UHGV virus genome: UHGV-0110022
Strand: one strand, 5' to 3'
Origin: a virus
DNA: 48,769 nt
The notes under the pieces are model-generated. The model saw only the letters and a list, made by a program, of their open reading frames with translations, did not search any database and was not told the DNA's origin. How positions within the stretch are numbered: the first letter of the stretch is position 1; every line of letters begins with the position of its first letter. Both the position numbers and the translations under genes were made by a program. Shown here in pieces: positions 28,463 to 48,769 of the stretch.

Positions 28463-29538
28463 ACGACAATGTCACGCTACGGGTAAATGGCCGGGAGTGG
28501 AATGGCTGGACATCGGTGCGCATCGGTGCCGGTATTGAACGGCTGGCGCGGGATTTCAGCGTGGAGATCACCCGCCAGTGGCCGGGAGATGAGGGTATCA
28601 CCACGCTTCAGCCGCGCATTAAAAATGGTTCAAAAGTGGAAGTGCTGATTGGTGATGAGCTGGTGATCACCGGCTGGGTGGAGGCGACCCCCGTTCGTTA
28701 CGATGCCCGTTCGGTCAGCACCGGTATTGCCGGACGTAGTCTGACTGCTGACCTGATTGACTGTGCAGCCGAACCGACACAGTTTAACGGACGATCGCTG
28801 GTACAGATTGCGCAGGCGCTTGCTGCGCCTTTCGGCATTGAGGTGGTGAACAGCGATGCGCCGTCGGGTGTTATTCCGGATGTCCAGCCTGATCACGGTG
28901 AAACGGTGATCGAGGTGATCAACAAAATACTCGGTCAGCAGCAGGCGCTGGCTTATGACGACCCGCACGGCAGGCTGGTGATTGGTGGTATTGGCTCAAC
29001 GCGGGCACATACCGCGCTGGTACTTGGGGAAAACATCCTTTCCTGTGATACGGAGAAGAGTATCCGGGAGCGGTTTTCAGTTTACCAGGTGGCGGGGCAG
29101 CGTGCCGGAAACGACGATGATTTCGGTGAGGCCACCACCACCGCGCTGCGGGCCCGCACAGAGGATGCATTTATTGCCCGTTACCGTCCGATGTATATCA
29201 GGCAGACAGGGCAGGCTACGGGGGCAGGCTGTATTGCGCGTGCTGACTTTGAAGCCCGACAACGGGCGGCGCGGACGGATGAAACCACCTATGTGGTGCA
29301 GGGCTGGCGACAGGGTAACGGTACGCTGTGGCAGCCCAACCAGCGGGTGATTGTCTTCGATCCGGTCTGTGGTTTCGACAATACCGAACTGCTTGTCTCG
29401 GAAGTCACGTTTACTCAGGACCAGAATGGCACCCTGACGGAAATCCGTGTCGGCCCACCTGATGCTTATCTGCCTGAACCCGAAGCCCCCGGCGCGCGGA
29501 AAAAGAAAAAAGCCAGAGTACAGGAGGACCCGTTCTGA
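28459..29538 (+). CDS. baseplate hub protein (Mu gpP-like)
   Basis: Position and size in Mu-like baseplate cluster. Confidence 0.65.
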   Translation: MNDNVTLRVNGREWNGWTSVRIGAGIERLARDFSVEITRQWPGDEGITTLQPRIKNGSKVEVLIGDELVITGWVEATPVRYDARSVSTGIAGRSLTADLIDCAAEPTQFNGRSLVQIAQALAAPFGIEVVNSDAPSGVIPDVQPDHGETVIEVINKILGQQQALAYDDPHGRLVIGGIGSTRAHTALVLGENILSCDTEKSIRERFSVYQVAGQRAGNDDDFGEATTTALRARTEDAFIARYRPMYIRQTGQATGAGCIARADFEARQRAARTDETTYVVQGWRQGNGTLWQPNQRVIVFDPVCGFDNTELLVSEVTFTQDQNGTLTEIRVGPPDAYLPEPEAPGARKKKKARVQEDPF

Positions 29539-30086
29539 TGAAGGCGATTGAAACCATACAGCGACAACTCCTCGGCCTGATTGGGCGGGCGGTGGTGAAA
29601 AGCATCAGTGCCGCCACGAAATGTCAGACCGTGGATGTGTCCCTGATTGCCGGTGAACCCAAAGCCGGGGTTGAACATCTTGAACCCTACGGTTTTACCG
29701 CAAGGGCAAACAGCGGTGCGGAAGCGGTGGTGTTGTTTCCGGATGGTGACCGTTCTCATGCGGTGGTTGTTACGGTGTCGGACCGGCGCTACCGCCTGAA
29801 AGGGCTGCAGACGGGTGAGGTGGCTGTCTATGACGATCAGGGGCAGTCCGTGACGCTGACCCGGGCGGGGATCGTGGTGGACGGTGCAGGTAAAACGATC
29901 ACGTTTCGCAATGCGCCTAAGGCTCGTTTTGAAATGGACCTGGAAGTGACCGGACAGGTGAAAGACCTGTGCGACTCCAGCGGCACCACCATGTCAGCGA
30001 TGCGGCTTGCCTATAACGGGCATCGTCACAGAGAGAACGGTCAGGGCAGTAACACCGACAAACCTGATAAAGCGATGGAGGCATGA
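29538..30086 (+). CDS. baseplate assembly protein V (spike)
   Basis: gpV-like 182-aa protein; ATGA overlap. Confidence 0.75.
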   Translation: MKAIETIQRQLLGLIGRAVVKSISAATKCQTVDVSLIAGEPKAGVEHLEPYGFTARANSGAEAVVLFPDGDRSHAVVVTVSDRRYRLKGLQTGEVAVYDDQGQSVTLTRAGIVVDGAGKTITFRNAPKARFEMDLEVTGQVKDLCDSSGTTMSAMRLAYNGHRHRENGQGSNTDKPDKAMEA

Positions 30087-30511
30087 TGGAACTGTGGCTG
30101 ACGGTGAACGGTAAACGCACCTGCGCCAGCGCACCGATGGATCCGCTGACCCGTGCCGTGGTGATTTCCCTGTTCACCTGGCGGCGGGCTGAACCTGATG
30201 ACAATGCCGACGTCCCGATGGGATGGTGGGGGGATACCTGGCCTGCGGTACAGAATGACCGTTACGGCTCCCGACTGTGGCTGCTTCAGCGCAGCAAACT
30301 GACCAATCAGCTGGTGCAGACGGTAAGGGGGTATATCCGCGAATGCCTGCAATGGATGATTGATGACGGCGTGGTGTCCCGTATTGATCTGGATATCCGC
30401 CGCACCGGGATTAATGAACTGGGTAACAGTATCACTCTCTGGCGTCGTGACGGACCGGTAATGATTTCTTTTGATGATCTGTGGAGTGCGATAACGCATG
30501 GCGGACAGTGA
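30083..30511 (+). CDS. GP46-family baseplate protein
   Basis: Position between V and J-like genes. Confidence 0.6.
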   Translation: MMELWLTVNGKRTCASAPMDPLTRAVVISLFTWRRAEPDDNADVPMGWWGDTWPAVQNDRYGSRLWLLQRSKLTNQLVQTVRGYIRECLQWMIDDGVVSRIDLDIRRTGINELGNSITLWRRDGPVMISFDDLWSAITHGGQ

Positions 30512-31556
30512 ATTTCAGCGCCCGACGCTGGCAGAAAATATCAGTATGCTCCGTAACGATTTATTCGCCAGGCTGGACGTCAGCGACACGCTCCGGCGCA
30601 TGGATGAAGACGTGCGGGCAAAGGTGTATGCGGCGGCGCTGCATACGGTTTACGGTTACATCGATTATCTGGCAATGAACATGCTGCCTGACCTGTGCGA
30701 TGAGTCCTGGCTGGCGCGACATGCTGCGATGAAACGGTGTCCGCGCAAGGGAGCCACGGCTGCCAGTGGGTATATGCGCTGGGAAGGTGTCAGCGATGGC
30801 CTGAAGGTGACCGCCGGGAGTGTTATTCAGCGCGATGACCTGGTGCAGTACACGACAACTGACGATGCAACCAGCTCCGGTGGTGTCCTGCGCGTGCCGA
30901 TCGCCTGCTCAAGTGCAGGTGCGGTCGGTAACGCTGACGACGGTACGGCATTAATCCTGGTCACGCCGGTGAATGGTCTGCCGTCTTCCGGTGTGGCTGA
31001 CACCCTGACAGGCGGATTTGATACTGAAGAGCTGGAAACGTGGCGCGCCCGCGTCATTGAGCGGTATTACTGGACGCCGCAGGGCGGGGCTGACGGGGAC
31101 TATGTTGTCTGGGCTAAAGAAGTGCCCGGCATTACCCGCGCATGGACATACCGTCACTGGATGGGAACGGGAACTGTCGGTGTGATGATTGCCAGCAGTG
31201 ACCTGATTAATCCCATTCCGGAAGAATCAACGGAAACGGCGGCAAGACAACATATCGAGCCACTGGCCCCGGTGGCAGGCTCTGATTTGTATGTGTTCAG
31301 GCCGGTGGCACATACGGTGGATTTTCATATCCGTGTGACGCCGGACACACCGGAAATACGGGCTGCCATCACCGCGGAGTTGCGTTCGTTCCTGCTGCGT
31401 GATGGTTATCCGCAGGGAGAACTGAAGGTATCGCGTATCAGTGAGGCGATTTCCGGTGCGAACGGGGAATACAGCCATCAGTTGCTTGCACCGGCAGACA
31501 ATATCTCCATTGCAAAAAATGAACTGGCGGTACTGGGGACGATTTCATGGACGTGA
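30498..31556 (+). CDS. baseplate J-like protein
   Basis: 352 aa at the expected position. Confidence 0.8.
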
Positions 31557-32131
31557 CAAACGATGATTACATCCGTCTGTTGTCGGCACTGTTGCCCCTC
31601 GGTCCGGCGTGGTCAGCCAGCGATCCGGCGATTGCCGGTGCGGCACCGTCATTAACCCGCGTTCATCAGCGTGCGGATGCCCTGATGCGGGAGCTGGATC
31701 CGCGCACCACCACTGAACTGATAAACCGCTGGGAGCGTCTGTGCGGTCTGCCGGATGAATGTATTCCCGCAGGGACACAGACCCTTCGCCAGCGTCAGCA
31801 ACGGCTGGATGCGAAGGTTAACCTGGCGGGCGGCATCAACGAGGATTTTTACCTTGCACAGCTTGCTGCCCTGGGCAGACCAGATGCCACCATCACGCGA
31901 TACGACAAAAGCACGTTCACCTGCTCATCGGCCTGTACTGACGCGGTGAATGCGCCGGAATGGCGGTATTACTGGCAGGTCAACATGCCAGCCGCCACCA
32001 ACACCACCTGGATGACATGTGGCGATCCCTGTGATTCCGCACTGCGTATCTGGGGGGACACCATTGTCGAGTGCGTGCTTAACAAACTCTGTCCGTCTCA
32101 TACCTACGTAATTTTTAAATATCCGGAGTAA
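31547..32131 (+). CDS. tail protein YmfQ-like (DUF2313, gp48 family)
   Basis: 194 aa, same size and position as e14 YmfQ upstream of the tail fibre. Confidence 0.6.
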
Positions 32132-32134
32132 TCC

Positions 32135-32884
32135 ATGCATCGCATAGACACGAAAACCGCGCAGAAGGATAAGTTCGGCGCGGGTAAGAACGGTTTTACC
32201 CGTGGTAACCCCCAGACCGGCACGCCTGCCACCGATCTGGATGATGACTACTTTGACATGTTGCAGGAAGAGCTTTGCAGCGTGGTGGAGGCATCCGGTG
32301 CCAGTCTGGAGAAGGGGCGGCACGACCAGTTGCTTACCGCGCTTCGTGCGCTGCTGTTAAGCCGCAAGAATCCGTTTGGCGATATCAAATCGGATGGCTC
32401 AGTGAAAACGGCTCTCGAAAACCTTGGTTTGGGAGAAGGCTCTGCATTACCTGTTGGTGTGCCTGTTCCATGGCCTTCAGCCACACCGCCAACAGGCTGG
32501 CTGAAATGCAACGGTGCGGCATTTTCTGCTGAAGAATACCCGGAACTGGCAAAGGCTTACCCGACAAATAAATTGCCTGATTTACGTGGTGAGTTCATTC
32601 GTGGCTGGGATGACGGAAGAGGAATAGATACTAACCGTAGCTTGCTTTCATCACAGGGCGATGCCATTCGAAATATAATTGGTGCATTAGTGGATGTCAG
32701 GTTTAATAACTACCCTTCTGATTCTGGCGTTTTTACAACCAGCGTCATCGGAGATGCTTCATCTGATTCAATTAAAGGTGGTTATGCAAAGCGAGTAACA
32801 TTCGATGCTTCCAGAGTTGTTCCAACTGCAAACGAAAACCGACCTCGTAACATTTCCTTTAATTATATCGTGAGGGCTGCCTGA
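32135..32884 (+). CDS. tail fibre protein (constant N-terminus plus currently expressed variable C-terminus)
   Basis: Conserved tail-fibre N-terminus ([40 protein letters not shown]); contains inversion crossover site at 32412-32437. Confidence 0.8.
32412..32437. repeat. Pin recombination site (left inverted repeat, gix/hix-like)
   Basis: CTCGAAAACCTTGGTTTGGGAGAA; inverted match to 34237-34262 (shared TTGGTTTGGGAGAAG). Confidence 0.65.
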
Positions 32885-33486
32885 TGAATAAAGTTGTCTT
32901 AAATAACGAACTCATTGCCATAAAAGCGGGAGACATAACCGTTTATAATTATGATGGTGAAACGCGGGAATATATTTCCACATCAACAGAATATCTTGCC
33001 ATTGGTGTCGGCATTCCGGCATGTTCCTGTTTAGATGCCCCTAGCCCATACAAAACTGGTTATGCAATTTGCCGTTCTGAAGATTTTAACTCGTGGATAT
33101 ATGTGCCAGACCATCGTGGTGAAATTGTCTATAGCACTGAAACAGGAGAATCAAAAGAAATCACAGCTCCGGGTGATTATCCTGAAAATACAACCACTAT
33201 CGTCCCATTAACGCCATACGATAAATGGGATGGTGAGAAATGGGTGACAGATACTGAGGCACAATATGGTGCCGCAGTAAAAGCGGCAGAAGTACAGCGA
33301 CAGTCACTAATTGATACTGCAATGGCTTCCATTAGTCTGATTCAACTGAAATTGCAGGCCGGGAGGAAGCTGACGCAGACAGAAACCACCCGACTAAACG
33401 CTGTGCTGGATTACATTGACGCGGTGACGGCAACGGATACCAGCACCGCGCCGGATGTCATCTGGCCTGAACTGCCGGAGGAGTAG
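32884..33486 (+). CDS. tail fibre assembly protein (currently expressed orientation)
   Basis: C-terminal Tfa motif LDYIDAVTATDTSTAPDVIWPELP. Confidence 0.8.
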   Translation: MNKVVLNNELIAIKAGDITVYNYDGETREYISTSTEYLAIGVGIPACSCLDAPSPYKTGYAICRSEDFNSWIYVPDHRGEIVYSTETGESKEITAPGDYPENTTTIVPLTPYDKWDGEKWVTDTEAQYGAAVKAAEVQRQSLIDTAMASISLIQLKLQAGRKLTQTETTRLNAVLDYIDAVTATDTSTAPDVIWPELPEE

Positions 33487-33889
33487 GCCATTCAATATCT
33501 GGCGCACCAGAAGTATCGACCAGTTCCAGTGCGTCCAGATAATCCAGCCACAAATTATATTGCGCCAGTTCCTCACCTTTCAGACGACCAATCGCCGCTT
33601 TACCAGGCCATTGTTTACTGTTCATGTATTCGTTGGCCTGATTAACTAATCGCTGTTTATTTGATTCAGCGATTGAGATTAATTCTTCGCTGGTAAGTGG
33701 TGGCGCATCCTGCCATGCTGGAAAACCATTTTTATCTGAACCAAGTATTTTACCATCAGGCCATGCAACTCCTGCGAACTCAGAATAAATAGTAAAGTTT
33801 ATTTTCGTAGCGTTCTCAGGAATGGTTTGGCTATCTGGTGAAATATAAAATCCCGAATCAGAGGGATTAAAATAATATGTCTTTTCCAT
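33458..33889 (-). CDS. alternative tail fibre assembly protein
   Basis: C-terminal Tfa motif LDYLDALELVDTSGAPDIEWPTPP; convergent with the plus-strand tfa. Confidence 0.75.
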   Translation of the reverse strand: MEKTYYFNPSDSGFYISPDSQTIPENATKINFTIYSEFAGVAWPDGKILGSDKNGFPAWQDAPPLTSEELISIAESNKQRLVNQANEYMNSKQWPGKAAIGRLKGEELAQYNLWLDYLDALELVDTSGAPDIEWPTPPAVQAR

Positions 33890-33891
33890 AG

Positions 33892-34262
33892 TTAATACCC
33901 CACTGCCATCCAGTAAATTGAATTTGTTGTAGCAGAAGTGTAAGTAAATCTGATTTTAGTTCTGTTGGTACTTCCAATATCAAAGCCCACAGAACGGGCA
34001 GAAGGATCATTAGTTGAAATAAGAGCGTTTACCGAACGACAAGCAGCAGGGAAAGCTACAGGTAATGTTATATCAACTGTTCCAACACTTCCTCCGGTTG
34101 GTGAGACAGAAAAACTCCCCCATTGAATAATCATCCCCCCAGGTAATTTCTGGTATCCATTGGCGGTCAATGAGTTACCAAAGTTGTTCATATCCGGTAC
34201 CTGATTTTCTCCTGTCCCCACATTCCGTTTTGCCGCTTCTCCCAAACCAACGTTTATGAAAA
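33892..34262 (-). CDS. promoterless alternative tail-fibre C-terminal segment
   Basis: Open frame runs through the right recombination site (..INVGLGEAAK..) matching ..[10 protein letters not shown].. at the left site, so inversion would fuse it to the constant N-terminus. Confidence 0.55.
34237..34262. repeat. Pin recombination site (right inverted repeat)
   Basis: TTCTCCCAAACCAACGTTTATGAAAA; internal dyad symmetry typical of Hin/Gin-family sites. Confidence 0.65.
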
Positions 34263-34316
34263 TGCAGAAATAACGAGCAAATGGCATCATTCCTGCTTTT
34301 GTCAGAGGGATCCACT

Positions 34317-34871
34317 ATGCTTATTGGCTATGTACGCGTATCAACAAATGACCAGAACACCGATCTACAACGTAATGCGTTGAACTGTGCAGGATGCGAG
34401 CTGATTTTTGAAGACAAGATAAGCGGCACAAAGTCCGAAAGACCAGGATTGAAAAAACTGCTAAGGACATTATCGGCAGGTGACACACTGGTTGTCTGGA
34501 AGCTGGATCGGCTGGGGCGTAGTATGCGGCATCTGGTCATTCTGGTTGAGGAGTTGCGCGAACGTGGCGTTAATTTTCGCAGCCTGACGGATGCTATTGA
34601 TACCAGCACACCGATGGGGCGTTTTTTCTTTCATGTGATGGGTGCCCTGGCTGAAATGGAACGAGAACTGATTGTTGAACGAACAAAAGCTGGACTGGAA
34701 GCTGCTCGCGCACAGGGACGAATTGGGGGACGTCGTCCCAAACTTACACCAGAACAATGGGCGCAGGCCGGACGATTAATTGCAGCAGGAATTCCTCGCC
34801 AGAAGGTGGCGATCATCTATGATGTTGGTGTATCGACACTGTATAAGAAGTTTCCGGTCGGAGATAAATGA
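34317..34871 (+). CDS. pin: serine DNA invertase (Pin/Gin/Hin family)
   Basis: N-terminal MLIGYVRVSTNDQNTDLQ with catalytic Ser, C-terminal HTH; 184 aa. Confidence 0.85.
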   Translation: MLIGYVRVSTNDQNTDLQRNALNCAGCELIFEDKISGTKSERPGLKKLLRTLSAGDTLVVWKLDRLGRSMRHLVILVEELRERGVNFRSLTDAIDTSTPMGRFFFHVMGALAEMERELIVERTKAGLEAARAQGRIGGRRPKLTPEQWAQAGRLIAAGIPRQKVAIIYDVGVSTLYKKFPVGDK

Positions 34872-35197
34872 AACCGCAGGCTCGTCGTATGCAAGAAAGT
34901 GCTGCGGCTGGCTGGCCAGCTTCTGATAGTGCGAATATTGAATGATTTCTATCTGTTATAGATTTTACCGTATTTCGGCATGAATGAAACTGAATATCCT
35001 CCCACCGATTCTTCATGACTTTACGCCACTGTCTCTAGGGCTGCTATGTGCCAAAAGCAGACTGACTAACTCAATAGTGGGTCAGTCAAAATGAGGGATA
35101 CGTCGACTCCTGTTACTGTTATCAATTATATTGTAGAATCAGAAAGCAGGCGTCAAAGACCTTAAATATTATTCGATACCTTAGGGATGTAAGTGAT

Positions 35198-35680
35198 ATG
35201 CTCGACAATATGAATGAATATGAGGAATTCTTGTTCCATAGGATTGATGATTCGGATTTATTGACAGGATTTGTTATTGGCCATTTAGTGATTGAACATC
35301 TTCTTGAAGAGATAATTCTAGGCTATGACATCAAGCTCAGAAAACATTTTCTTACATTGAGTCATAGTAAAAAAATAAACTTCATAAATTCTTTGGAACT
35401 AATACCTGATAACGTAGCAAGTTGTTTGCAAAGTATTAACAAAATAAGAAATAAATTTGCTCATCAATTAGGTTACAAGCCGAATAAAGGTGATTTATTG
35501 AACCTAATTGAGCAATGTATAGATAGTTTTAACGATATGACCGACGGACTTGAACAACTTCATGGTGCTCTAAAACAATGTGATGATCTACTTGAAACAC
35601 AAGAAAAAGACGGAGTTGGGCTAGCTGATCTCTTTATACAAGTGGTCTACGATCTAGAGGGGTACGCCAAAAAATATTGA
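35198..35680 (+). CDS. HEPN-motif protein (160 aa), candidate abortive-infection/RNase-type cargo
   Basis: R-x4-H motif in IRNKFAHQ; AT-rich; lies between invertase and att fragment. Confidence 0.45.
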   Translation: MLDNMNEYEEFLFHRIDDSDLLTGFVIGHLVIEHLLEEIILGYDIKLRKHFLTLSHSKKINFINSLELIPDNVASCLQSINKIRNKFAHQLGYKPNKGDLLNLIEQCIDSFNDMTDGLEQLHGALKQCDDLLETQEKDGVGLADLFIQVVYDLEGYAKKY

Positions 35681-35893
35681 GTCATTATTCTTGGGGTAGC
35701 CCTCCAATTCGGTGACGCATATTTTTGTTAGTTATTGGTATTAACAGGTAACTGCCGCTTCTCGCTCATAGCGAAACTTAAACCTAGTAAACTCGTCAGC
35801 TCCGTGCCAGGATCGGAAGTTGCAAAGTTTCGGCATTTTATGCCAGTGAGTTCCTAATTTCTAATCAACCTCTTCATTATAGGAGTTAGTAAA

Positions 35894-36103
35894 TTGAAAA
35901 TCGATTGGCATAGCTCATTACTGACCAGTAACAATAGCATGGATAAAAACTATAAAAATACACAAAACGTTCGTCTTTTCATGATTAAGGAATGTGGTGA
36001 AGATTTTCGATTCGATCGTGAATTTATGATGTGGATACGTAATGATGATCCGAAAACTTTGGGTGATGTTATCAATGAGTGGAAACGCAGACATTCGTTT
36101 TAA
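35894..36103 (+). CDS. hypothetical protein (69 aa, TTG start)
   Basis: AGGAG RBS 8 nt before TTG; AT-rich. Confidence 0.35.
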   Translation: MKIDWHSSLLTSNNSMDKNYKNTQNVRLFMIKECGEDFRFDREFMMWIRNDDPKTLGDVINEWKRRHSF

Positions 36104-36382
36104 TAAGCCAAGCCCGCTTTTCGCTCATAACAGACATTCACTACAGTTATGGTAGAAGGTATGCATGCTGGGTGGGGAAAGTATGAAGGAAAAGAAGACT
36201 GCTGCGCCGTTTGTCGTCACATTTATCTTCATTGGCTATGCAAGTCGTAATACAAGGTGGGACAAAACTGAGACACATAAGGCCTCGCAATGACTTGCAA
36301 GGCTTTACATGTTTTGATGTGGTGGGACGTGTGAGCGCAGTGTTGATGGGGTAATGCTTTGAATTAGAAGCGGATTCTTATA

Positions 36383-36428
36383 ATTCGTAATGCGAAGGTC
36401 GTAGGTTCGACTCCTATTATCGGCACCA
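36383..36428 (+). tRNA. thrW: tRNA-Thr 3' fragment (anticodon loop to CCA end); prophage att core / attR-like
   Basis: ATTCGTAATGCGAAGGTCGTAGGTTCGACTCCTATTATCGGCACCA matches the 3' part of tRNA-Thr(CGU) as recalled; 5' acceptor strand GCCGATA absent upstream. Confidence 0.65.
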
Positions 36429-37008
36429 TCAACAGAAAATCCCGTAAAAACAGCATTCTTTAGCATGTTTATCTAACGGTTTGTAACTTCTGTTCTAACG
36501 TCTGTTAGCACTGGTAAACGCCTTTGCGTTGTATCGGCTCAAGTATTGTACAACGTACTGGCGGGTAGTTACCAGGCTCAAGCCCGAACAGCATTAGAAA
36601 TTATGCCATCCCTTGAAGCTAAAAGAGTTGCCGGACTCTCTAAACACATCACTTGAACCCTTAGCGATACGTTCCGCGCTTCGTGCGGCGCTCAATGATG
36701 CTACACGTCGAGATGACGTTGCAGAAAATAAACAGGCGTAATGTTGGGAAGACTAACCGGATCGGGAAAGAATCCGGCTCTGCCACGGTTTCGATCACCG
36801 GAGTATAACGATCACCTGATAAGAGAACGTGCTAAGGCTTTATCCTCCCTGCGAAGGGATTACACCCTGCGGAAGCGCTACGCGCCGCCTTTTCTTATGT
36901 GCCCAACACGGCACGTAATGGTCATCCATTATCTGCACCATTGTAACTTTCGTTGTACTGCCTCTCTGATGTACGTTGAGCGCTGGCAGATTCAGCGGAG
37001 GGGATATC

Positions 37009-37167
37009 ATGTCAAAAGCTAACCAAAAAGCAGCCACGAAGCGCAACAACCGTAAGATTCACGCCCGTAAATTCCTGGCAACACCAGAGGGGAAAGCCTG
37101 GCTTGCTAAGAAGCAGGAAGAGCGAGAGGAAATCAAGTTGGCGCGAGCTGCAAACTTGATGTTTTGA
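37009..37167 (+). CDS. small basic protein (52 aa)
   Basis: GGAGGGG RBS 5 nt before ATG. Confidence 0.4.
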   Translation: MSKANQKAATKRNNRKIHARKFLATPEGKAWLAKKQEEREEIKLARAANLMF

Positions 37168-37178
37168 GATGGGGCTAA

Positions 37179-37979
37179 TCAGCCCCTATTGCCCCTATGC
37201 TTTTTTTCGAATCTTGTCACAACTCTATCCAACCATTTGGGTTCTTCTCTAAGATCTGAGTAGTAACAATTTTCTGGAACCGCGTTCCAGAAAGCAGTTA
37301 TTGCGTTAGCAAAATCTACAAATTGATCTTCTGAGACATGTAAATCGTCATGGTTAGGGACAATCTGCGTGCCTCTAACATCGGTGGGGTTTGGGTAATA
37401 CTCAGGATGATCAACTGATAGTGTTTGATGTGCAGGGCCGTCTCCATGCTTGTATACGTTTACCACCAAGTTACAGGCTTTTATCCTTTCTCCGTATTCG
37501 GTTCCATTGATTGTGAGGCCAATCCATTCGAGCAAATCAATTAGCTGATGGAAAGTTAAATTCCAGATCATGGGGGTAATCAATTCTCTTTCACACCAAT
37601 TACTTAGCTCTTTGATAGTATGTTCTCTTAGTTTTTTATCAAACTGATGATACATACCTGCTGTCAACGCCAACAATACGGTATTTTGCATCTCCAGAAG
37701 CGACCATACATAATAAATTCCCTCATGATAGGCTTGCTCGTAGGCCGCCATTGGGTCATCGTTATCTTGATCAAAATACTCAGCAGTAGTCTCCAAAAAC
37801 TGTTGTTCTCTCTTCTCTGCTTCTTGTTCTAAATCACCAAACTGAGAGAGAAGCCGCCGCCTTGCCTCAGAAACGTAAAATTCATGGGGTTCAAGAAAGT
37901 ATGGAAGATCGGCTCTGGCTAACCAGAAGGTGACAAAATTTTCAGTAGACATACATTTCCTCAATGAAGCGATAGACAT
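37179..37979 (-). CDS. hypothetical protein (266 aa)
   Basis: Long ORF; no recognisable motif; start uncertain. Confidence 0.45.
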   Translation of the reverse strand: MSIASLRKCMSTENFVTFWLARADLPYFLEPHEFYVSEARRRLLSQFGDLEQEAEKREQQFLETTAEYFDQDNDDPMAAYEQAYHEGIYYVWSLLEMQNTVLLALTAGMYHQFDKKLREHTIKELSNWCERELITPMIWNLTFHQLIDLLEWIGLTINGTEYGERIKACNLVVNVYKHGDGPAHQTLSVDHPEYYPNPTDVRGTQIVPNHDDLHVSEDQFVDFANAITAFWNAVPENCYYSDLREEPKWLDRVVTRFEKKHRGNRG

Positions 37980-38115
37980 TTTGAGGTTATGTTATCTTCG
38001 GTGAGGGTTAAAATCCTCAACTGATTCAATGGAATTGTCATTTGGTTTGAAATGCGGTAAAAGAATAAAATTCGTAATGTACGCTTTGCAGAAACAATCT
38101 GAAAATGAGGTGGTT

Positions 38116-38343
38116 ATGAGTGAACGTTACGAATTTTTACCCAATTGCTTCCTGAAAGTCTCTATCTCATCGGGTTACTTTACTGCCATCCTTGATGGTT
38201 CGCTTCCTCCTGATACCCCTGGTTCTGTTCATGCTGATAATGCCACGCAAGTCATAATCGTACTCGATTCCTACTTCCAATTGACTGACTTACAGCATCA
38301 AGGAATTGCTAATTATCTTTGCTCTCAAGGGATGGAACTTTGA
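38116..38343 (+). CDS. hypothetical protein (75 aa)
   Basis: GAGG RBS before ATG 38116. Confidence 0.3.
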   Translation: MSERYEFLPNCFLKVSISSGYFTAILDGSLPPDTPGSVHADNATQVIIVLDSYFQLTDLQHQGIANYLCSQGMEL

Positions 38344-38798
38344 TAGATTGGTTGCTTAATGTTGATAATCTGACCATGCTTGCCGCATGGGCTGGGTTTG
38401 CACTATCCATTTTCCAGCTATTAAAATCCAGAACAGATCTACGCCTTTTCTTAGGTTGCGATCAGTATGAAGACAGAATTTATGTTTCCAACAAAAGCGC
38501 CCATGATGTGACGATAAGTTCGGCGGGCATAGTAACCGCCAGCGGACGCCTTAGCGATTGTTCTAACGAACATTGTGATGAATACATGATCAGCCCCATG
38601 TTGCCACGCCGATTAAAAGCCCGTGATGAAATGATCTTAGAAGTACCATTCATCAATAAGGCTCACCATAATAAGGTGCATCATCGCGGAGGGGTGTATG
38701 TTACTACATCTGATGGGAAGCTGTTCAGTGATGTTAGTTGGCTGCGTCGTCGCTGGTGGTGGATATTGTCTCTGATCCTACGTGATTCCAAGCAGTGA
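38319..38798 (+). CDS. hypothetical protein, possibly membrane (start uncertain)
   Basis: ORF with hydrophobic N-terminal segment; no clear RBS. Confidence 0.3.
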   Translation: MLSRDGTLIDWLLNVDNLTMLAAWAGFALSIFQLLKSRTDLRLFLGCDQYEDRIYVSNKSAHDVTISSAGIVTASGRLSDCSNEHCDEYMISPMLPRRLKARDEMILEVPFINKAHHNKVHHRGGVYVTTSDGKLFSDVSWLRRRWWWILSLILRDSKQ

Positions 38799-38856
38799 TT
38801 ACTTATACACCGCACCAGACCACGCTGGTTATCTGCTTGTCTTCCTTCTTCAATCG

Positions 38857-39054
38857 TTACTCCTCTTCAAAGGTCATTGTGTAGCGGCATTGCTGCGACG
38901 GCCTGAGCGTCACTGTCTCCGTAAAGTTGGCGTTGGAATAAACGCAAATCTTCGCGTTGTCTGTCTCCTGTTCGTCACTGAGAATCAGGGTTATCTGTCC
39001 GGCATTCGCCAGGACTGGCATTACTGTCAGCGTCAGCACAAGCAAGCGTTTCAT
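38857..39054 (-). CDS. small secreted protein (65 aa with signal peptide)
   Basis: AGGAG RBS 7 nt before ATG; signal peptide MKRLLVLTLTVMPVLANA; directly downstream of the recombinase. Confidence 0.45.
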   Translation of the reverse strand: MKRLLVLTLTVMPVLANAGQITLILSDEQETDNAKICVYSNANFTETVTLRPSQQCRYTMTFEEE

Positions 39055-39064
39055 GCGTATCTCC

Positions 39065-39697
39065 TTATAAGTCCATCTCATTGATCACACGGCTAACGGC
39101 TTGCTTGTCTAAATCCAGATAGCGCCTGGTGTCAGTGATGTTGCTGTGATTAAGCACGGTCATAGCTAAAGCGATGTTGTTTGCTGAACGCTTGTAGATG
39201 GCATTCCCGCCAGCTTTGCGGAAGCTGTGAGCTGATACAGTGCCATGAATACCGATAGCTTTAGCGGCCTCTGCGATCTGCTTGCTCACTTCTTCGCGTC
39301 GTACAGGCGCTTGCTTGTTCATTGATCGGTTACGCTGGCTTCTGAACACATGCACATCATGCGGATACTCAGCACGGCGACGAGCAATCATCTGCACCAC
39401 TGGAGCAGGGAGAGTGAGGGCTTTACGCTTCCCTGTCTTCTGTTCTTCTATGTCAATCTCACCGTTGATCACTTCGTCGAAGCGTAACGCTACGGCATCC
39501 CCCACACGCAGTACAGCGGCTTGCATCATTAACGTAACGTCAGCTATCAGGCTCTTGTTATGAGCGTTTAGCCACTCCCTGATCGCTTTGGCTTGCTGTT
39601 CGTCTAACACTACTGCTCTGTTCAATTTACCCTCCCATAAAGACACACATCTAAACTCAACGAAACAAATAATATGATCAATTTCAGTAAGTTGCAA
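39065..39697 (-). CDS. small tyrosine recombinase (catalytic domain only, FimB/FimE-size)
   Basis: Catalytic residues in LRVGDAVALRFDEV (Arg), HSFRKAGG (His-x-x-Arg), TDTRRYL (Tyr); possible TTG start at 39625 after GGGAGGG RBS, giving 186 aa. Confidence 0.55.
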   Translation of the reverse strand: MQLTEIDHIICFVEFRCVSLWEGKLNRAVVLDEQQAKAIREWLNAHNKSLIADVTLMMQAAVLRVGDAVALRFDEVINGEIDIEEQKTGKRKALTLPAPVVQMIARRRAEYPHDVHVFRSQRNRSMNKQAPVRREEVSKQIAEAAKAIGIHGTVSAHSFRKAGGNAIYKRSANNIALAMTVLNHSNITDTRRYLDLDKQAVSRVINEMDL

Positions 39698-40384
39698 TAT
39701 AAATGATCAAAAATCGAACTGTCTTGTGTGTGGTAAATGGCGCGATTGCGTCCAGTGCTTAACGACCTCCAGGGCCGCCTCCAGATCGAAAATTTCTTCT
39801 CCTCTAAATATCTTGAACAAAATCATGATGTTGGCATTTATAAACATGTGTTTGAACATTGCCAAATCCTCAACTCTGCACGAAGAACAGCGGCAACAGC
39901 GGAACATCACACTACCAATGCTTGTGTGTGGTTATTGTCTATCTCATTGATTTAAATCTGATAAATGTAAGGTTGTTAGGCGAGGGCGGGGCTAACCTGC
40001 CTGTATGCACAGATTATGCGGAGTTTATGCACTTGAAACTGAGTGTGTAATGAAATGATTAGAATGCTAATCAATTGGTGGATTTTGGCATGAAAAAGAA
40101 ACATCGTTTCATTTTAGAAAACTCGTTCAGCACATTGCACCTGTCATGAAACTCCTCATTGTGGACAATGATCGCTGTGAGCCGCATGGCGCAAGGCTTT
40201 ACGCAAAGTGAGTGATGGTTACTATCTTGCTGACTATGGCAACTTTACCCATGTAACAACGGCAATCTTTACCTGTCATTTAAGATAGGCTTAGCTATGA
40301 TTATCGTGTTGTTTTGATAGGAATAACCTCTCGTTACTCTTAGTGTTGTTGCATGGATGAATCAGAGTTAGTTGGGGGCGTTAT

Positions 40385-40464
40385 ACATCAAAATGATGTA
40401 TAGATGCATGGGATACGCATCAAATTGATGTATGGATCGGCAAACTACACATCAAATTGATGTT
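40385..40464. repeat. three phased palindromic repeats (putative regulator binding sites)
   Basis: CATCAAA(A/T)TGATG at 40386, 40418, 40450 with exact 32-bp spacing. Confidence 0.5.
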
Positions 40465-41014
40465 CTATACAAAGAGATTCTAAAAGCGATCTCTAAAAGA
40501 GAGCTTTTAGAAGATCTTGTTAAAGATTCGCTTTGCTGGCGCGTATCGCCTGGCAAGTGACCTGATTCGCCTTTGGGGGCTACTCGGTCAGCCGCTCACG
40601 ACGCAGCGTAGCGCATCTGTCTGTGATTGTGCCAGGGCTTCGCCCTCGTGAAACGAGGCACAGAAGCTATGCGCCGTGTGCGCAATGTCTTTCAGGATAA
40701 CTTCTGCCTGTCTTCCATGCTCCGCATTCATCCATGCAAAGTTAGCCCACGGCTAAGGATTCACTGGTCGCTGATGGCTCCAGTTCATCCAGCCTCAATC
40801 CAATACCATCACCTACTATCCTGATAACTAACGTTATCCCTCAGTAGTTGTGCTATTGGTTTCGGGAGTAAGTGCCAGAGGGCGGCGGTAACGCAAACGG
40901 AACGCCCCAGACGCGCTGAGAGCGAATTTGAGAGGATAGGGAGGGGATTGCAACTCTCAGGCTTTCAAACCTGTTAGAAAGCGATAGACCGCGTTTTATG
41001 ATGACATGAATGAG

Positions 41015-41094
41015 TTGATCACAACGTGGAAATGCGCTATAATTTGAAAGGGATTGAAATAAGTGTTGACATTTAAATCATTTCATGTTAAAGT
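41015..41094 (+). promoter_or_regulatory. tandem sigma70-like promoters
   Basis: TTGATC-17 nt-TATAAT (41015-41043) and TTGACA-17 nt-TAAAGT (41066-41094). Confidence 0.45.
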
Positions 41095-41189
41095 AAATGA
41101 TGTAGGGTGATGAAAGCATTCATCCCGTCCTCATCTCAGGCATCCAGCCTAACGCAAACAATCCAACTTACACCGCACTATCAGGCAAC

Positions 41190-41438
41190 GTGATTAACGT
41201 TCTCCCTGGATGGTGTTTCTGTGTTTCTAACGCAAGGAGAACCAAAATTAAGTATTTTAATCCAGAACTTGTCTTCGAGGCTTTAAAGGCCGGAAGCCAG
41301 ACGCGAAATGCAATAAACAGCCAGCGAGCAGCCGCACAACGGCAAGGATATTTCGAACACGCTGAAAGATTGCGTAAAGGAATCGAACTTTACGATCAAT
41401 GGAAAGCTGAACAGGCTGAAACCACCACCAACGAATAA
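41190..41438 (+). CDS. hypothetical protein (start uncertain)
   Basis: ORF with internal AAGGAG at 41233 but no in-frame ATG after it. Confidence 0.3.
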   Translation: MINVLPGWCFCVSNARRTKIKYFNPELVFEALKAGSQTRNAINSQRAAAQRQGYFEHAERLRKGIELYDQWKAEQAETTTNE

Positions 41439-41456
41439 ACCAGAAGGAGAAACCAA

Positions 41457-41633
41457 ATGAGCGAAATCCAGAAGAAGAAACCAGCCGGAACATTCGTAAA
41501 ACTGCCGGATGAAGTGTTTAGTACTTTGTTCAAAGAGGCGCGAGCGAGAGGCGTAACAGTGCAGGAGATGTTAATTGACGCTGCAACCACACTTTCCACA
41601 TCAATTAAGAACGGAGAACGTTCTACCAAATAA
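41457..41633 (+). CDS. small DNA-binding-like protein (58 aa, possible ribbon-helix-helix), not in the ORF track
   Basis: AGAAGGAG RBS 7 nt before ATG; translation MSEIQKKKPAGTFVKLPDEVFSTLFKEARARGVTVQEMLIDAATTL... Confidence 0.4.
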   Translation: MSEIQKKKPAGTFVKLPDEVFSTLFKEARARGVTVQEMLIDAATTLSTSIKNGERSTK

Positions 41634-41647
41634 GGATACACCCTAAC

Positions 41648-42388
41648 ATGACTGACATTATAAACAGTAAGGCTTTTAGTTTCACCAACACCGAAGACGC
41701 ATTTAACGAATGCACCAGGATCACCAATCTTAAAACAGGCGTAACAGAGTCCCTGTCTCCTGCTGATAAGCAGTTTTACGTCAGAATGCGCCATCGTTAT
41801 TATCGCTTTGCGATAGAGTTGGGCGGTACTTATTACGATGACATTGATCAACTTGGTGCAAGTATTGGTGTCAGCTCGGCTACGGCAACACGTATTGTTG
41901 CAAAGTTGAAGAAAATCGGACTGATCGCCAGTAATAAGCCAAAGCGCTCTAACCAATGGACTATAACGCCACTCACGCCGCAAAACTTCACCTTTGAACG
42001 TGATCGTAATGCGATGGAACGTGATTCCGCGCCGGAATGGGTAGATTGTCTGAAACATCCCGTGTTTGGCAAAGCTAAAGAAGACGTAGCGCCAGAGGAA
42101 GAAAAACAGCAGTCAGTGCCAGAAGAGGCCAAAGCAGATCCGAAGCCGGAGAAGCCAAAGAAAATGCCTACGAAGAAACCCGCCTCCATTCCAGCTAAAG
42201 ATATTAAGATAGAGCCAGTTAATTTAAACTTTCTTGAGGGTTATCGGGATGAATGGGAGAATCCTGAAAAGAATCTACCAGTTTCACAACATCCGAAAAT
42301 CAGATGGCTACTTATTAACGGATACCTGGACACAGAGAAGAATCCAAAACTTAAACCAATCTACGAGGAAATAGAACATTTATGCTGA
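41648..42388 (+). CDS. HTH-containing protein (246 aa), possible replication/regulatory protein
   Basis: Winged-helix-like segment IGVSSATATRIVAKLKKIGLI; Lys/Pro/Glu-rich linker. Confidence 0.45.
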   Translation: MTDIINSKAFSFTNTEDAFNECTRITNLKTGVTESLSPADKQFYVRMRHRYYRFAIELGGTYYDDIDQLGASIGVSSATATRIVAKLKKIGLIASNKPKRSNQWTITPLTPQNFTFERDRNAMERDSAPEWVDCLKHPVFGKAKEDVAPEEEKQQSVPEEAKADPKPEKPKKMPTKKPASIPAKDIKIEPVNLNFLEGYRDEWENPEKNLPVSQHPKIRWLLINGYLDTEKNPKLKPIYEEIEHLC

Positions 42389-42843
42389 AAACGGTTATAC
42401 CCAAACAATACAACGAACGTGATCTTAACATCATCCATCTTGCCAGTTTATTAAATCCAGAAGTTGAAAGAGGTGTTGCATTCGAACAAGCGCAAGAACT
42501 TGTAGATGTTTACGCTGAGCGAGGTGAATCAAGTTACGCTAATGCTCTTGTTACGCTATTCAATGCAGCGATGAAGCCACCGAAAGAGATAGAATGTAAA
42601 ATGACATCCCCACATCTTCACGATAAGAATCTGTCTCCTTCGGAACGTCTGGTATTAATGCACCTCGAATCACTGCCATCATTAACAAATGTGAAACAGG
42701 AGTCAATAGCGATAGTGTTGGGGATAAGTGTGGCAACTGTATCCAGTGCGATTCGCAAGCTCCGCCGCAATGATTATCTAACTACTACGTTAATCAAACC
42801 TGGTCGCGGTAAAGGATGCGACATTACACTTACGACTAAATAA
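42382..42843 (+). CDS. winged-helix transcriptional regulator-like protein (153 aa)
   Basis: HTH-like segment IAIVLGISVATVSSAIRKLRRNDYL. Confidence 0.4.
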   Translation: MLKTVIPKQYNERDLNIIHLASLLNPEVERGVAFEQAQELVDVYAERGESSYANALVTLFNAAMKPPKEIECKMTSPHLHDKNLSPSERLVLMHLESLPSLTNVKQESIAIVLGISVATVSSAIRKLRRNDYLTTTLIKPGRGKGCDITLTTK

Positions 42844-42947
42844 CAACAATCGGGAAACTTTTATGATTACTGCTTTATGGTGGTTCACCATATTCTATGG
42901 CGTTTACGTTATAACCAGACAAGGAGTTTCCCCTCTACGAGGAATGA

Positions 42948-43331
42948 ATGGGACGAAAAGAACGAAGTAACCTTGTTAGAATCGAAAAAGCCACACGCAT
43001 CAGCAAACGTAAATACACCTCTTCTCTACAAGACCTCGCACGAGAGTCTATTCCTGGTGAGATGGTGACAACTATTAAAGAATATCCCGCAGTAGTACCA
43101 AATGGATTAGAGTTTGAACTATTGCAGGATGTTCTATCGTCAACGGATAACGTTTATTACAAACCACGACGCAGACGCGAATATATTATAGATAGTAGCC
43201 ATCTCAAGAAATGGCAAATAGCAGGATTTGAACATTACGCCGATTATATTGGGTATTGTCAAACCTGGGGGCTATCCCAGCACACACAAGAGTTTGATAT
43301 TCTCTTTGACGACAAGGAAAACAATGAATAA
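42948..43331 (+). CDS. hypothetical protein (start uncertain)
   Basis: ORF only. Confidence 0.25.
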   Translation: MGRKERSNLVRIEKATRISKRKYTSSLQDLARESIPGEMVTTIKEYPAVVPNGLEFELLQDVLSSTDNVYYKPRRRREYIIDSSHLKKWQIAGFEHYADYIGYCQTWGLSQHTQEFDILFDDKENNE

Positions 43332-43662
43332 TAAAACTATGGACACAGTGAACACCCTAATTAACTCTTTCCACGACAACTGGCATTTACCAACCTTACA
43401 GCTTGTTAATGCAGCGTGGCGTGAGAGAACGCCCTCCGCGCTTCTGGAAGCGGTGCAATACACTGAACAGGCAATCACTGCCCTTGAACATCTGCAAACG
43501 TCTGTAGCTCGTTTGGTGCAGCGTGACGGCAGTTCGATCACACCAGAAGAAGCGTGGCGTGTAGCTAATGACCTTGAGGAGCTTGCTTGCTCTCTGCAAT
43601 ACATCACCGTTGAACTCGGAGAGCTTTCCATCCAGATCGCGGAAGAATGCGCCATAACATAA
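43324..43662 (+). CDS. hypothetical protein (112 aa)
   Basis: AAGGAAA RBS before ATG 43324. Confidence 0.35.
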   Translation: MNNKTMDTVNTLINSFHDNWHLPTLQLVNAAWRERTPSALLEAVQYTEQAITALEHLQTSVARLVQRDGSSITPEEAWRVANDLEELACSLQYITVELGELSIQIAEECAIT

Positions 43663-43677
43663 AAGTTACTAAATGTC

Positions 43678-43706
43678 TTGACATTATGTGCTATATGTGT
43701 CATAAT
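43678..43706 (+). promoter_or_regulatory. near-consensus sigma70 promoter
   Basis: TTGACA(43678-43683)-17 nt-CATAAT(43701-43706). Confidence 0.55.
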
Positions 43707-44236
43707 GAGTTATAGGGTAAGTATTCGAATCACTTCACCCTCGTATGTCAATACGCACTCCTTGAGAATGCCGTTCCCATAGCGGCATTCTCTCCCTCTG
43801 AATGCTATTTCTGAAAGTGTTGGTTCTTTGTCTTGTTTGTTCCGAAGGAATGCGCGGGATGTAATATCTCGTTGTGTTGGTATTGCATCGCAATCACCGC
43901 GCATCTCCGACTTTTTCAGAAAGGGCATTCGCTCTTTGCTCATTCATTCCGTTAGGATGAATGTAGTCAGACTGAATAAACGCCGTCAGCGGTAGTTACG
44001 TTCAGGCTGGCAATCTCTTATTACTATTCCAGTGGTGATATTGAGATTCCATTCCCACTTCTCGCCATGACAGAAGGGCTTCTGTTTTGAAGTGGGAGCA
44101 ATGACGGGCGATCCTACTTCTGTTATTCGTAACAGTTGCGCCCTTCATTTTTTCAAGAAGCCATTCTTTAACATCATAATCCTCCGAAACGAAAATGATT
44201 TTAACAGAATGCTTTCTAACAAGGGCATATTCTCCA

Positions 44237-44258
44237 GGGGCTTAATCGCCCCTTTTTA
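44237..44258 (+). terminator. rho-independent terminator at the end of a structured leader
   Basis: GGGGC-ttaatc-GCCCC followed by TTTTT. Confidence 0.55.
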
Positions 44259-44328
44259 ACAATCTGCATGTAACACTTCCGTTATTAATGGAAGGATAAA
44301 CGCAGTTATAACGCGAAGGAACAACACA

Positions 44329-44544
44329 ATGTTCTTAATAAACAATCGCGACCGAATCCTAAAATACAAATCCGAAGTGATTCAAGTTAATCCTGAGTTA
44401 ATAGCTAAAGTGGCTGAAATGGCAGGATGTACCGTTGAAGAAATAGAAAAAGCTGTAGACCAGTATTTCCCTTCTGAGGACACACCTCAACTTAGTATGC
44501 AGGAACGGATCGCAATCAAATCCAAGGAAATCAAACAACAATGA
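44329..44544 (+). CDS. hypothetical protein (71 aa)
   Basis: AAGGAA RBS; first gene of the capsid-like cluster. Confidence 0.4.
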   Translation: MFLINNRDRILKYKSEVIQVNPELIAKVAEMAGCTVEEIEKAVDQYFPSEDTPQLSMQERIAIKSKEIKQQ

Positions 44545-44900
44545 TTGTAGACCTAACCGAACTTTTCCCAATTCGTAAGAGTTTCACTGACGTATTGAGC
44601 TACGCCACTGATTCTTTTGCAGTCGTAGAAGGCCGTGTTTTCGACCTGCCAGCAGATATTGAATGCGGCGATGTTATCGGCGCTGATGGCGCTCTATACA
44701 CCTCCGGCGATGATGCCTTTGTGGTGGTAAGTGATTTCGTGAGTGCTGGCGACGGTAAAACCGTGAATGTCCTACGTGCGCCTAATGTTGGTAGCTTCGT
44801 AGCACTGAAAGCCGACAACCTGCACGCAGCTAATCACGCCGCAGCTATCACCACGCTCGAATCCAAAGGGTTCGTATGCCGTCCATTCTTCACCTCTTAA
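44541..44900 (+). CDS. head decoration protein-like (D-like, putative)
   Basis: 119-aa Gly/Ala/Val-rich protein immediately upstream of an E-like capsid gene; ATGA overlap. Confidence 0.4.
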   Translation: MIVDLTELFPIRKSFTDVLSYATDSFAVVEGRVFDLPADIECGDVIGADGALYTSGDDAFVVVSDFVSAGDGKTVNVLRAPNVGSFVALKADNLHAANHAAAITTLESKGFVCRPFFTS

Positions 44901-44916
44901 TCAAGGAAGATAAATA

Positions 44917-45948
44917 ATGAGTAAAATCGCAATTGGGCGTGAGATGGTCGATTTAGCGCCAATCTTCCAGGCTCTGCCGGAACGTAACTATCTTATGAAT
45001 GCCCTCGACCTATTCGACGGGGTAGGTGTTCAGAATCCGAAAGTGGTGGTGACACAGCTTCTGGATGATAACTACAGCCTGTTTAACACCCCGCAGAGCC
45101 GTTATTCATCAAACCACGACACTACCGCGCGTCAGAATGGCAAAGAATACCTTATCGAGATTCCTTGGTTTGCAAGGGAAGATGAGTTTAAACCTGTAGA
45201 CGTACAAGGCCGCAGAGTGCAGGGAACGGACTACGAGCAAACCGTTACCGACCTGTACACCGAATACACTGGCAAACATAAGATTGCTTATCTGCGTACC
45301 CGTGAGTCTTACCTGGCCCGTGCTCTGTTCAAAGGTGAAGTTTATACGCCTGCAACTGATGACCTACTGATCTCTTATGCTGAACTGTTCGGTGTGGTGC
45401 CAATGACAGCCAGCGTGAGCACAGCGACAGCGGCACAGGATTTTGATGCGATCTTAGACAAAGTTCAGGCTGCCGCAGGTGGATTGGCTGGACAGATTGA
45501 ACGAGTGATCGTATTCGCTAAACCTGCTGCATTTAGCCAGATTCGCTTCTCTGACAGTATGTCTAAGGCGTTCCAGTATGTAGCGCCATATGACGACCGT
45601 AACCTATTCTACCAGCGTCACGAGCTTCTCCCTGGTGTTAGTACGTTTAGCCTACCTGGTGCGCCTATCGACATTGTTAAAGTGACAGATCCGCTGATCC
45701 TTGCACAGATGCCAGATGATGCTGACATGGTGGCGGTTCCGGTGTTCAGTAAAGGCACAAATGCTTATCAGAACATCTACGGCGCTGCCTCTGGTAACTT
45801 TGCGCTGATCGATGCTGCACCTGCTGAATACTACTCTTGGGGCTACCTGAGCGAGCGCGGCGATGCTTACCACGTTATGCACGAAAACAGCGCATTACCA
45901 GTGAACCATGCGTTAGGTATGCAGGTGAAGATCACCATCACTGCTTAA
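44917..45948 (+). CDS. major capsid protein, E-like family (putative)
   Basis: 343 aa, lambda gpE-like size and composition; follows decoration-like gene. Confidence 0.5.
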   Translation: MSKIAIGREMVDLAPIFQALPERNYLMNALDLFDGVGVQNPKVVVTQLLDDNYSLFNTPQSRYSSNHDTTARQNGKEYLIEIPWFAREDEFKPVDVQGRRVQGTDYEQTVTDLYTEYTGKHKIAYLRTRESYLARALFKGEVYTPATDDLLISYAELFGVVPMTASVSTATAAQDFDAILDKVQAAAGGLAGQIERVIVFAKPAAFSQIRFSDSMSKAFQYVAPYDDRNLFYQRHELLPGVSTFSLPGAPIDIVKVTDPLILAQMPDDADMVAVPVFSKGTNAYQNIYGAASGNFALIDAAPAEYYSWGYLSERGDAYHVMHENSALPVNHALGMQVKITITA

Positions 45949-46067
45949 TGAGCAAGCGGGAGCCTGACCCGCTGGAAATAATCAGGCTATTGAATATGGC
46001 GTGTGAACGTTGGGAACATCTCCCCAGTGTTCCCGCCCTTTTTTATTTCCAGAATGAGGAAAGATAA

Positions 46068-46265
46068 ATGCAAGTGATTGTAAAAAGCGCGGGGCTTCAC
46101 CTCGCCGTAAATGCTGAAACAGCAGAAGAGTTATTAAATCTGGCGGGAGTGTGTCGTGTGCTTGAAATAGATCACGGTCATCTACGTCAGTTATTACATC
46201 GTGGGCGTAGTGTATCAGATGCACTTAATTATCTGGTGAGTAAAAAAGGCGGTGGCGATGCTTGA
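46068..46265 (+). CDS. hypothetical protein (65 aa)
   Basis: GAGGAAA RBS. Confidence 0.35.
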   Translation: MQVIVKSAGLHLAVNAETAEELLNLAGVCRVLEIDHGHLRQLLHRGRSVSDALNYLVSKKGGGDA

Positions 46266-48102: not shown

Positions 48103-48253
48103 TTGTGATGTAAATCACATGGGAATACCACATATTGCGCTCGCTTTGTAAAGGATGTGTATATGTGGTGTTTTTCTTTGACGCCGCTTCGTTTGTCCCT
48201 TACCCTTAAAAGGGTAAGCAGTTCACTCTTTATCTCCAAGATGAGGTGTTTTT

Positions 48254-48382: not shown

Positions 48383-48440
48383 AAATATCTCAAAGTGCCC
48401 ATAGCGGCGCTTATTCATTTGAATGTCTGGAGAGAATTAA

Positions 48441-48719: not shown

Positions 48720-48769
48720 GTTATCGGGGGATGGATAATCCCCCCTTAATTACTGGACGTTGTAATTTA

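Follow-up and report, generated by a model that had tools for sequence, protein, structure and literature searches.

Switches in which a DNA invertase exchanges the tip of a phage tail fibre are known from the e14 element of Escherichia coli K-12 and from phage Mu. The P segment of e14 (stfP-tfaP-tfaE-stfE-pinE) coexists in both orientations in K-12 cultures, and its inversion depends on the invertase PinE (PMC4272514; PMC12529663), which is experimentally active (PMC12529663). A locus of this kind lies at positions 32135 to 34871 of the virus genome UHGV-0110022, one strand of which was analysed here over its full 48,769 nucleotides (the window). It is, with high confidence, a Pin switch, i.e. 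a site-specific inversion system of the Gin/Hin/Cin type, for the tail fibre of a temperate myovirus prophage. Switches of this type are not new; thousands of E. coli genomes carry the pinE annotation. What is added here is comparative proof that this exact copy flips, a precise parts list, and a carrier that is SfII-like and located at thrW instead of being e14.

The window has the same gene order as the e14 P segment: ymfQ and the constant part of the fibre gene are followed by one tip with its chaperone gene tfa, by a second chaperone gene, tfa', with the alternative tip, and finally by pin. The published e14 repeat, TTGGTTTGGGAGAAGG, is matched at 16 of 16 positions by the left crossover site of the window and at 15 of 16 by the right one (PMC12529663). 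The candidate recombinational enhancers differ at two positions over a 63-bp span, the tfaP and tfaE genes of K-12 overlap by the same 29 nt as their counterparts here, and the pin-proximal open reading frame (ORF) with its leader is present in e14 as well. An orthologous invertase, the crossover sequence and the gene order are thus shared with the P segment, but residence in an e14 element inserted in icd is not. Whereas e14 is a defective remnant in icd, the element of the window sits at thrW and has a full SfII-like virion module. Compared with e14, the cassettes are other alleles, with 60% identity in the Collar-type tip, 32% in the gp53-like tip and a TfaP-like chaperone that is similar in its C-terminal half only. 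The segment is oriented opposite to the MG1655 reference, and pin is followed by a 160-amino-acid (aa) ORF and a DUF6434 ORF where e14 has mcrA. The original prediction for this locus, made from the nucleotide sequence, had taken the G-segment/e14 Pin architecture as established; every element of that architecture is present, but the host is an SfII-like prophage at thrW and not e14.

The G segment of Mu with its invertase Gin (S/U versus S'/U') follows the same logic, with a constant 5' part, two convergent cassettes of tip and chaperone, and 26-bp inverted sites. In Mu, as in the window, the invertase gene adjoins the segment; its 5' end carries the enhancer, for which the window has a candidate with candidate Fis cores at identical offsets. 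The Mu segment is, however, about 3 kb long with much longer tips, against 1,825 bp in the window; its constant fibre part comprises about 170 aa against 97 aa, and its gix core is GA, not AA. The Hin system of the Salmonella H segment has an invertase of the same subclass and works by the same invertasome mechanism, with sites of 26 bp and, about 100 bp from one of them, a Fis enhancer of 65 bp (PMC3798978). Hin flips a promoter and has its own gene inside the segment, whereas in the window the invertase lies outside and coding sequence is exchanged. The Shigella phages SfII, SfI, SfIV and SfV share, within a virion module of 97-98% identity, the constant fibre part up to the LGLGE codons, but SfII has one fixed fibre of 216 aa, one tfa gene and no invertase, and its cargo consists of O-antigen modification genes.

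Two 26-bp imperfect dyads bracket the segment in inverted orientation, with the same 2-bp core, AA, on the same strand. Of their 26 positions, 21 agree when both are read on one strand, and there is no difference in the inner, segment-proximal 12-bp half-sites or in the core; the exact stretch common to both is TTGGTTTGGGAGAAG. A repeat finder independently returned the inverted pair 32412-32437/34237-34262, with a 20-nt arm at 95%. A search of the 48.8-kb window with a degenerate 26-mer, allowing up to three mismatches, gave two matches, the two crossover sites themselves, and none in 100 shuffles. Further crossover sites, as expected in a multi-site system of the Min or shufflon kind, were not found in the window at this threshold, and such a system was therefore rejected. 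The original prediction had placed both repeats and their shared stretch correctly, although its left repeat was typed with 24 of the 26 bases, a "CT" having been dropped.

Measured from core to core, the invertible segment is 1,825 bp long and contains two convergent cassettes, each consisting of a fibre tip and its own assembly chaperone. Flipping positions 32426-34248 in silico keeps the reading frame and turns the 249-aa fibre into a fibre of 215 aa, and both orientations read ...ALENLGLGE... across the junction. This continuity of the frame had been predicted, as had the reverse-strand fibre C-terminus, which is without a start of its own inside the segment, and the serine invertase gene that follows. 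The two predicted tail-fibre-assembly genes are likewise present, with Caudo_TAP domains, but they are convergent and not divergent. Their 3' ends overlap by 29 nt (33458-33486), and in this overlap the conserved C-terminal motif region of the chaperones is coded on both strands. The coordinates of all parts are collected in Table 1.

Public assemblies demonstrate on identical sequence that the segment really inverts between the two sites. A 314-kb metagenome contig (L010; ENA ERZ27235222), found via its exact copy of the 200-aa Tfa protein, matches window positions 29188-32438 and 34236-37790 without a single mismatch (100% identity over 3,251 and 3,555 nt) and has positions 32419-34255 in the opposite orientation. 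It codes for exactly the predicted 215-aa fibre and, beside pin, for a 165-aa ORF composed of the leader and the Collar tip. Its right flank runs past the prophage end into neighbouring DNA; it is therefore the same prophage, in the same insertion, in the other phase. In addition, at least six short contigs from independent assemblies consist of the segment alone. One of them, L016, present in 10 samples, corresponds to positions 32424-34250, exactly core to core, while L017 corresponds to 32440-34234 and L018 to 32440-34229; L013 and L014 start at 32424, like L016, and L015 starts at 32409. According to the contig names, the assembler k-mers were k119 and k127, which is longer than the 20-bp repeat, and the breaks at the sites presumably arise from the presence of both junctions in the reads.

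Isolates point in the same direction. Two apparently clonal strains from pig faeces, obtained in one study (NZ_CM149862, 5,270,552 bp, and NZ_CM149870, 5,270,553 bp; L004 and L005), are 100% identical in flanks of 5,051 and 6,116 bp of the 13 kb compared, and differ only by a 1,870-bp inversion between sites identical to those of the window. The flipped junction is also found, contiguous, in nine other complete E. coli genomes at 97-98.6% identity. Among seven aligned related loci, four have the orientation of the window and three, including the K-12 reference, are flipped; the breakpoints of the flipped loci (L005, L006 and K-12) fall at 32419-32438 and 34236-34255.

Table 1. Parts of the switch and neighbouring ORFs; positions are those of the window.
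Feature	Position	Strand	Size	Description
Tail-fibre gene, present assembly	32135-32884	+	249 aa	Constant N-terminal part and Collar-type tip
Constant fibre part	32135-32423	+	residues 1-96 and first base of Leu97	Outside the invertible segment; 56% GC
Left crossover site	32412-32437	-	26 bp	CTCTCGAAAACCTTGGTTTGGGAGAA as written 5' to 3'; - strand reading TTCTCCCAAACC-AA-GGTTTTCGAGAG; core 32424-32425, within the fibre Leu97 codon
Sv cassette, Collar-type tip	32438-32884	+	148 aa	Most variable stretch 32631-32826
tfa, chaperone for Sv	32884-33486	+	200 aa	TfaE-like; Caudo_TAP; 87% to K-12 TfaE
tfa', chaperone for Sv'	33458-33889	-	143 aa	Caudo_TAP; C-terminal half 67% to K-12 TfaP
Sv' cassette, alternative gp53-like tip	33892-34236	-	114 aa	Gp53-like_C PF21882; no start codon inside the segment
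Pin-proximal ORF (predicted)	33892-34290	-	132 aa	18-residue leader MMPFARYFCIFINVGLGE and gp53-like tip
Right crossover site	34237-34262	+	26 bp	TTCTCCCAAACCAACGTTTATGAAAA, i.e. TTCTCCCAAACC-AA-CGTTTATGAAAA; core 34249-34250
pin, serine DNA invertase	34317-34871	+	184 aa	Resolvase PF00239 and HTH_7 PF02796; Ser9 intact
Candidate recombinational enhancer	34339-34401			In the 5' end of pin; two 15-bp Fis-type cores
Cargo ORF	35198-35680		160 aa	DUF4145 Pfam match just below the cut-off
Cargo ORF	35894-36103		69 aa	DUF6434 (precomputed Pfam)

The invertase belongs to the small serine recombinases, with an N-terminal catalytic domain, a C-terminal helix-turn-helix domain and the catalytic Ser9. 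In Hin, residues K47, R48 and K51 as well as Q151, R154 and L155 contact Fis and the enhancer and are specific to enhancer-dependent invertases (McLean et al., PMC3798978). Pin is identical to K-12 PinE at 177 of 184 residues (96%) and aligns without gaps to residues 1-181 of Mu Gin (PDB 3UJ3/4M6F; 78% identity, E=1e-93), Ser9 included. In an alignment made by eye against the Hin sequence, K46, K47 and R50 together with Q150, R153 and L154 of Pin correspond to those of Hin.

In the mechanism proposed for the switch, the constant 5' part of the fibre gene (codons 1-97) stays outside the segment, with the tips and chaperones inside. Pin dimers would bind both 26-bp sites and, together with Fis on the enhancer in the 5' end of pin, form an invertasome, whose dependence on Fis and the enhancer we infer. 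Cleavage at the identical AA/TT cores would then be followed by a 180-degree rotation. In the state of the window, the constant part is joined in frame to the Collar-type tip with the TfaE-like chaperone (249-aa fibre); in the flipped state, it is combined with the gp53-like tip and the TfaP-like chaperone (215-aa fibre). Because each tip is followed by its own chaperone gene, one flip exchanges tip and chaperone together. The virions of a lysogen population would thereby carry one of two receptor specificities. The fibre is probably part of a working tail, since the virion module shares 97-98% identity with the modules of SfII, SfI, SfIV and SfV, phages that have been isolated and sequenced.

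The two tips belong to different folds and families, one being Collar/T4 gp12-gp37-like and the other AP22 gp53/pyocin-like. The Collar-type tip, with Pfam Collar PF07484 at fibre residues 108-155, matches a short tail fibre of solved structure (PDB 9cuy, E=8e-29) as well as the T4 gp37 and gp12 collar regions; its protein-level identity is 97% with the tip of the side fibre in siphophage 500465-1, 68% with HK97 Stf and 60% with K-12 StfE. The gp53-like tip matches AP22 gp53 (PDB 4MTM) and the R1 pyocin fibre. It is common in E. coli prophages, and none of its relatives in phage records exceeds 53% identity. The N-terminal 105 aa of the fibre, in comparison, are 96% identical to K-12 StfP. Since the tips come from different folds and families, they likely bind different receptors and may thereby affect host range.

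A stretch of about 190 bp within the Collar tip (32631-32826) does not align in six of seven close relatives, although the sequence on either side of it is 92-96% identical; it has the look of a hypervariable patch that presumably contacts the receptor. The C-termini had been described as AT-rich, which agrees with a GC content of 42-46% in the cassettes against 55-56% in the structural and virion genes and the constant fibre part. The accompanying claim of recent exchange is supported by the mosaic character of the tips, namely the closeness of the Collar tip to that of 500465-1 compared with StfE and the unaligned stretch within it; the description is fair, and the pattern is one of classical tail-fibre mosaicism.

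The candidate enhancer consists of the Fis-type cores TATCAACAAATGACC (34339-34353) and GTGCAGGATGCGAGC (34387-34401), whose centres are 48 bp apart; the centre of the first lies 96.5 bp from that of the right crossover site. The degenerate Fis consensus and the 48-bp spacing figure are those of the older literature. K-12 e14 and Mu gin have both core matches too, at unchanged offsets, and the first 110 nt or so of pin are near-invariant among the window and these two. Hin-type enhancers measure about 65 bp, have a Fis site at each end and lie about 100 bp from one recombination site (PMC3798978). The candidate fits this published layout, and its predicted role in Fis binding is likely but unproven.

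Several points limit the account of an active, Fis-assisted tail-fibre switch. The evidence for inversion comes from public assemblies and isolates; different receptors for the two tips are deduced from the tip families, and Fis binding at the candidate enhancer from position, spacing and homology. When synonymous codons of pin and Mu gin are compared, codons 1-15 score 10/14, but codons 101-115 score equally high, and codon conservation was dropped as independent support for an embedded enhancer. A simple sigma-70 scan of positions 31900-35300 assigned no promoter to pin. This promoter and terminator scan returned 8 promoter-like sites where 5.8 were expected, and none is positioned so as to drive pin, Sv' or the leader ORF; the outcome speaks neither for nor against the word "promoterless" that the original prediction used for the reverse-strand C-terminus. 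Between the right site and the start of the invertase gene, a block at 34293-34312 (4069-4088 in the Mu locus L007) is invariant among the window, K-12 e14 and Mu. It reads ATGGCATcATT...GCTTTT and has no sigma-70 match in the simple scan; it may be the invertase promoter or a regulatory site.

General RecA recombination can also invert DNA between inverted repeats, and such a repeat is present here. The shared arm of about 20 bp is, however, far below efficient RecA substrates, the breakpoints fall on the core of what is a canonical 26-bp invertase site (core to core in L016), and K-12 pinE and pinE pinQ mutants are reported to be locked (PMC12529663); that RecA and not Pin caused the inversions among genomes is barely credible. 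It is also very improbable, if slightly less so, that the structure is a fossil with the right architecture but a locked phase in this strain. Locked relatives do exist: L006 (NZ_CM129848.1, 7154-7298) is flipped, has the diverged right site TTCTCCCAAACCAACCTTTTAGAAAA and retains only a 66-nt pseudogene fragment of the invertase, so that it appears to be a naturally locked copy, and K-12 e14 is itself a defective prophage. In the window, by contrast, pin is full length, with Ser9 and with residues that match the Fis contacts (in the alignment by eye to Hin), and the sites are identical to those inverted between the apparently clonal L004 and L005. A flipped copy with 100% identity exists, and assemblies of identical sequence break at the sites. 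A single orientation together with a mutated catalytic serine had been named in advance as the finding that would speak against a switch; the flipped metagenome contig and the intact Ser9 are the opposite of it.

A third explanation, unlikely but less so than these two, is that the lysogen, more than the phage, benefits from the switch and uses it as an anti-phage toggle: the product of the leader ORF, depending on orientation a free gp53-like or Collar-type receptor-binding domain, would occupy outer-membrane receptors and block the adsorption of other phages. Kirigo et al. describe that inversion of the e14 P segment creates StfE2, a fusion of the stfE leader and the gp53-like StfP tip, and StfE2 made from a plasmid cut T2 adsorption and protected against several phages (PMC12529663). 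In the window, the pin-proximal frame is open for 18 codons beyond the right site, up to an ATG at 34290, and reads into whichever cassette is present. The ORF, labelled "gp53-like domain-containing protein" by PGAP, currently carries the gp53-like domain and has the same build as StfE2 of K-12 (PMC12529663), for which the blocking of adsorption is claimed. The leader and its ATG are kept in all e14-type loci examined, and Mu has a Met at the equivalent place. This conservation is not independent evidence, because the leader overlaps the right crossover site and the upstream region of pin, which are conserved for cis-acting reasons. For the same overlap, the ATG-started ORF gives only a low probability that Sv' is an independent gene. 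Moreover, the gp53-like domain is just 32% identical to that of K-12, a promoter above chance was not found in the simple scan, and PADLOC gave no match. The published StfE2 effect itself rests on overproduction and docking (PMC12529663). The prophage looks intact, which makes the role of the fibre in the virion the simpler one, but the two roles are not mutually exclusive. A dual-purpose switch, whose flip would change both the virion fibre and a free receptor-binding domain that is expressed by the lysogen and blocks unrelated phages, is correspondingly doubtful. If it were real, the window would show the "gp53-like blocker on" state, its blocker allele being only 32% identical to the one studied; if the pin-proximal ORF is expressed, the adsorption block under inversion control that was recently proposed would be broadened by this allele.

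From the terminase genes to the fibre, the prophage shares 97-98% identity with SfII, SfI, SfIV and SfV, temperate myoviruses of Shigella, and this homology, which is 97% in the constant fibre part, goes no further than 32438, where the left site has its inner edge. On the right, the prophage ends at 36429, up to which the locus L011 is 100% identical before it diverges. Positions 36384-36429 represent the 3' part of a tRNA-Thr gene (thrW) next to proA, and these Shigella phages integrate at the same kind of attachment site. The element is an SfII/SfV-type myovirus prophage at thrW with an e14-type switch module, not e14, and it is apparently intact. The conserved LGLGE/crossover sequence forms a mosaic joint between phages with a fixed fibre (SfII and its relatives) and the switchable family. 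Phages that lack an invertase likewise have their different fibre tips attached at this joint (32438).

Beyond correct annotation, the locus is of little significance. An adequate annotation would list a single fibre gene that has two alternative 3' ends, together with two chaperones, two crossover sites and pinE. When assemblies of such strains break or disagree at this locus, the cause is biological and not an error, and public assemblies can prove the activity of a switch when they contain an identical flipped copy and contigs whose ends lie at the crossover cores.

Between pin and the attachment site (34872-36383) lies AT-rich cargo with 31-39% GC. PADLOC and NCBIfam gave no matches for its two ORFs or for the leader ORF. 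In relatives, the same slot is occupied by mcrA (K-12), a LEM-3-like GIY-YIG protein, a HipA-family kinase with DUF3037, or an ATP-binding protein, and the slot after pin looks like a variable, possibly defence-related cargo position.

The remainder of the window, from 36430 to 48769, is taken up by a second integrated element, whose annotation includes many hypothetical proteins besides two tyrosine integrases, a "major capsid protein" and a TolA-like protein. Nine E. coli genomes, e.g. AR_0128, contain it at 99.8% identity, and in them it lies directly at thrW next to proA. As it occupies thrW directly in genomes of the AR_0128 type, the prophage of the window was inserted in tandem with it.

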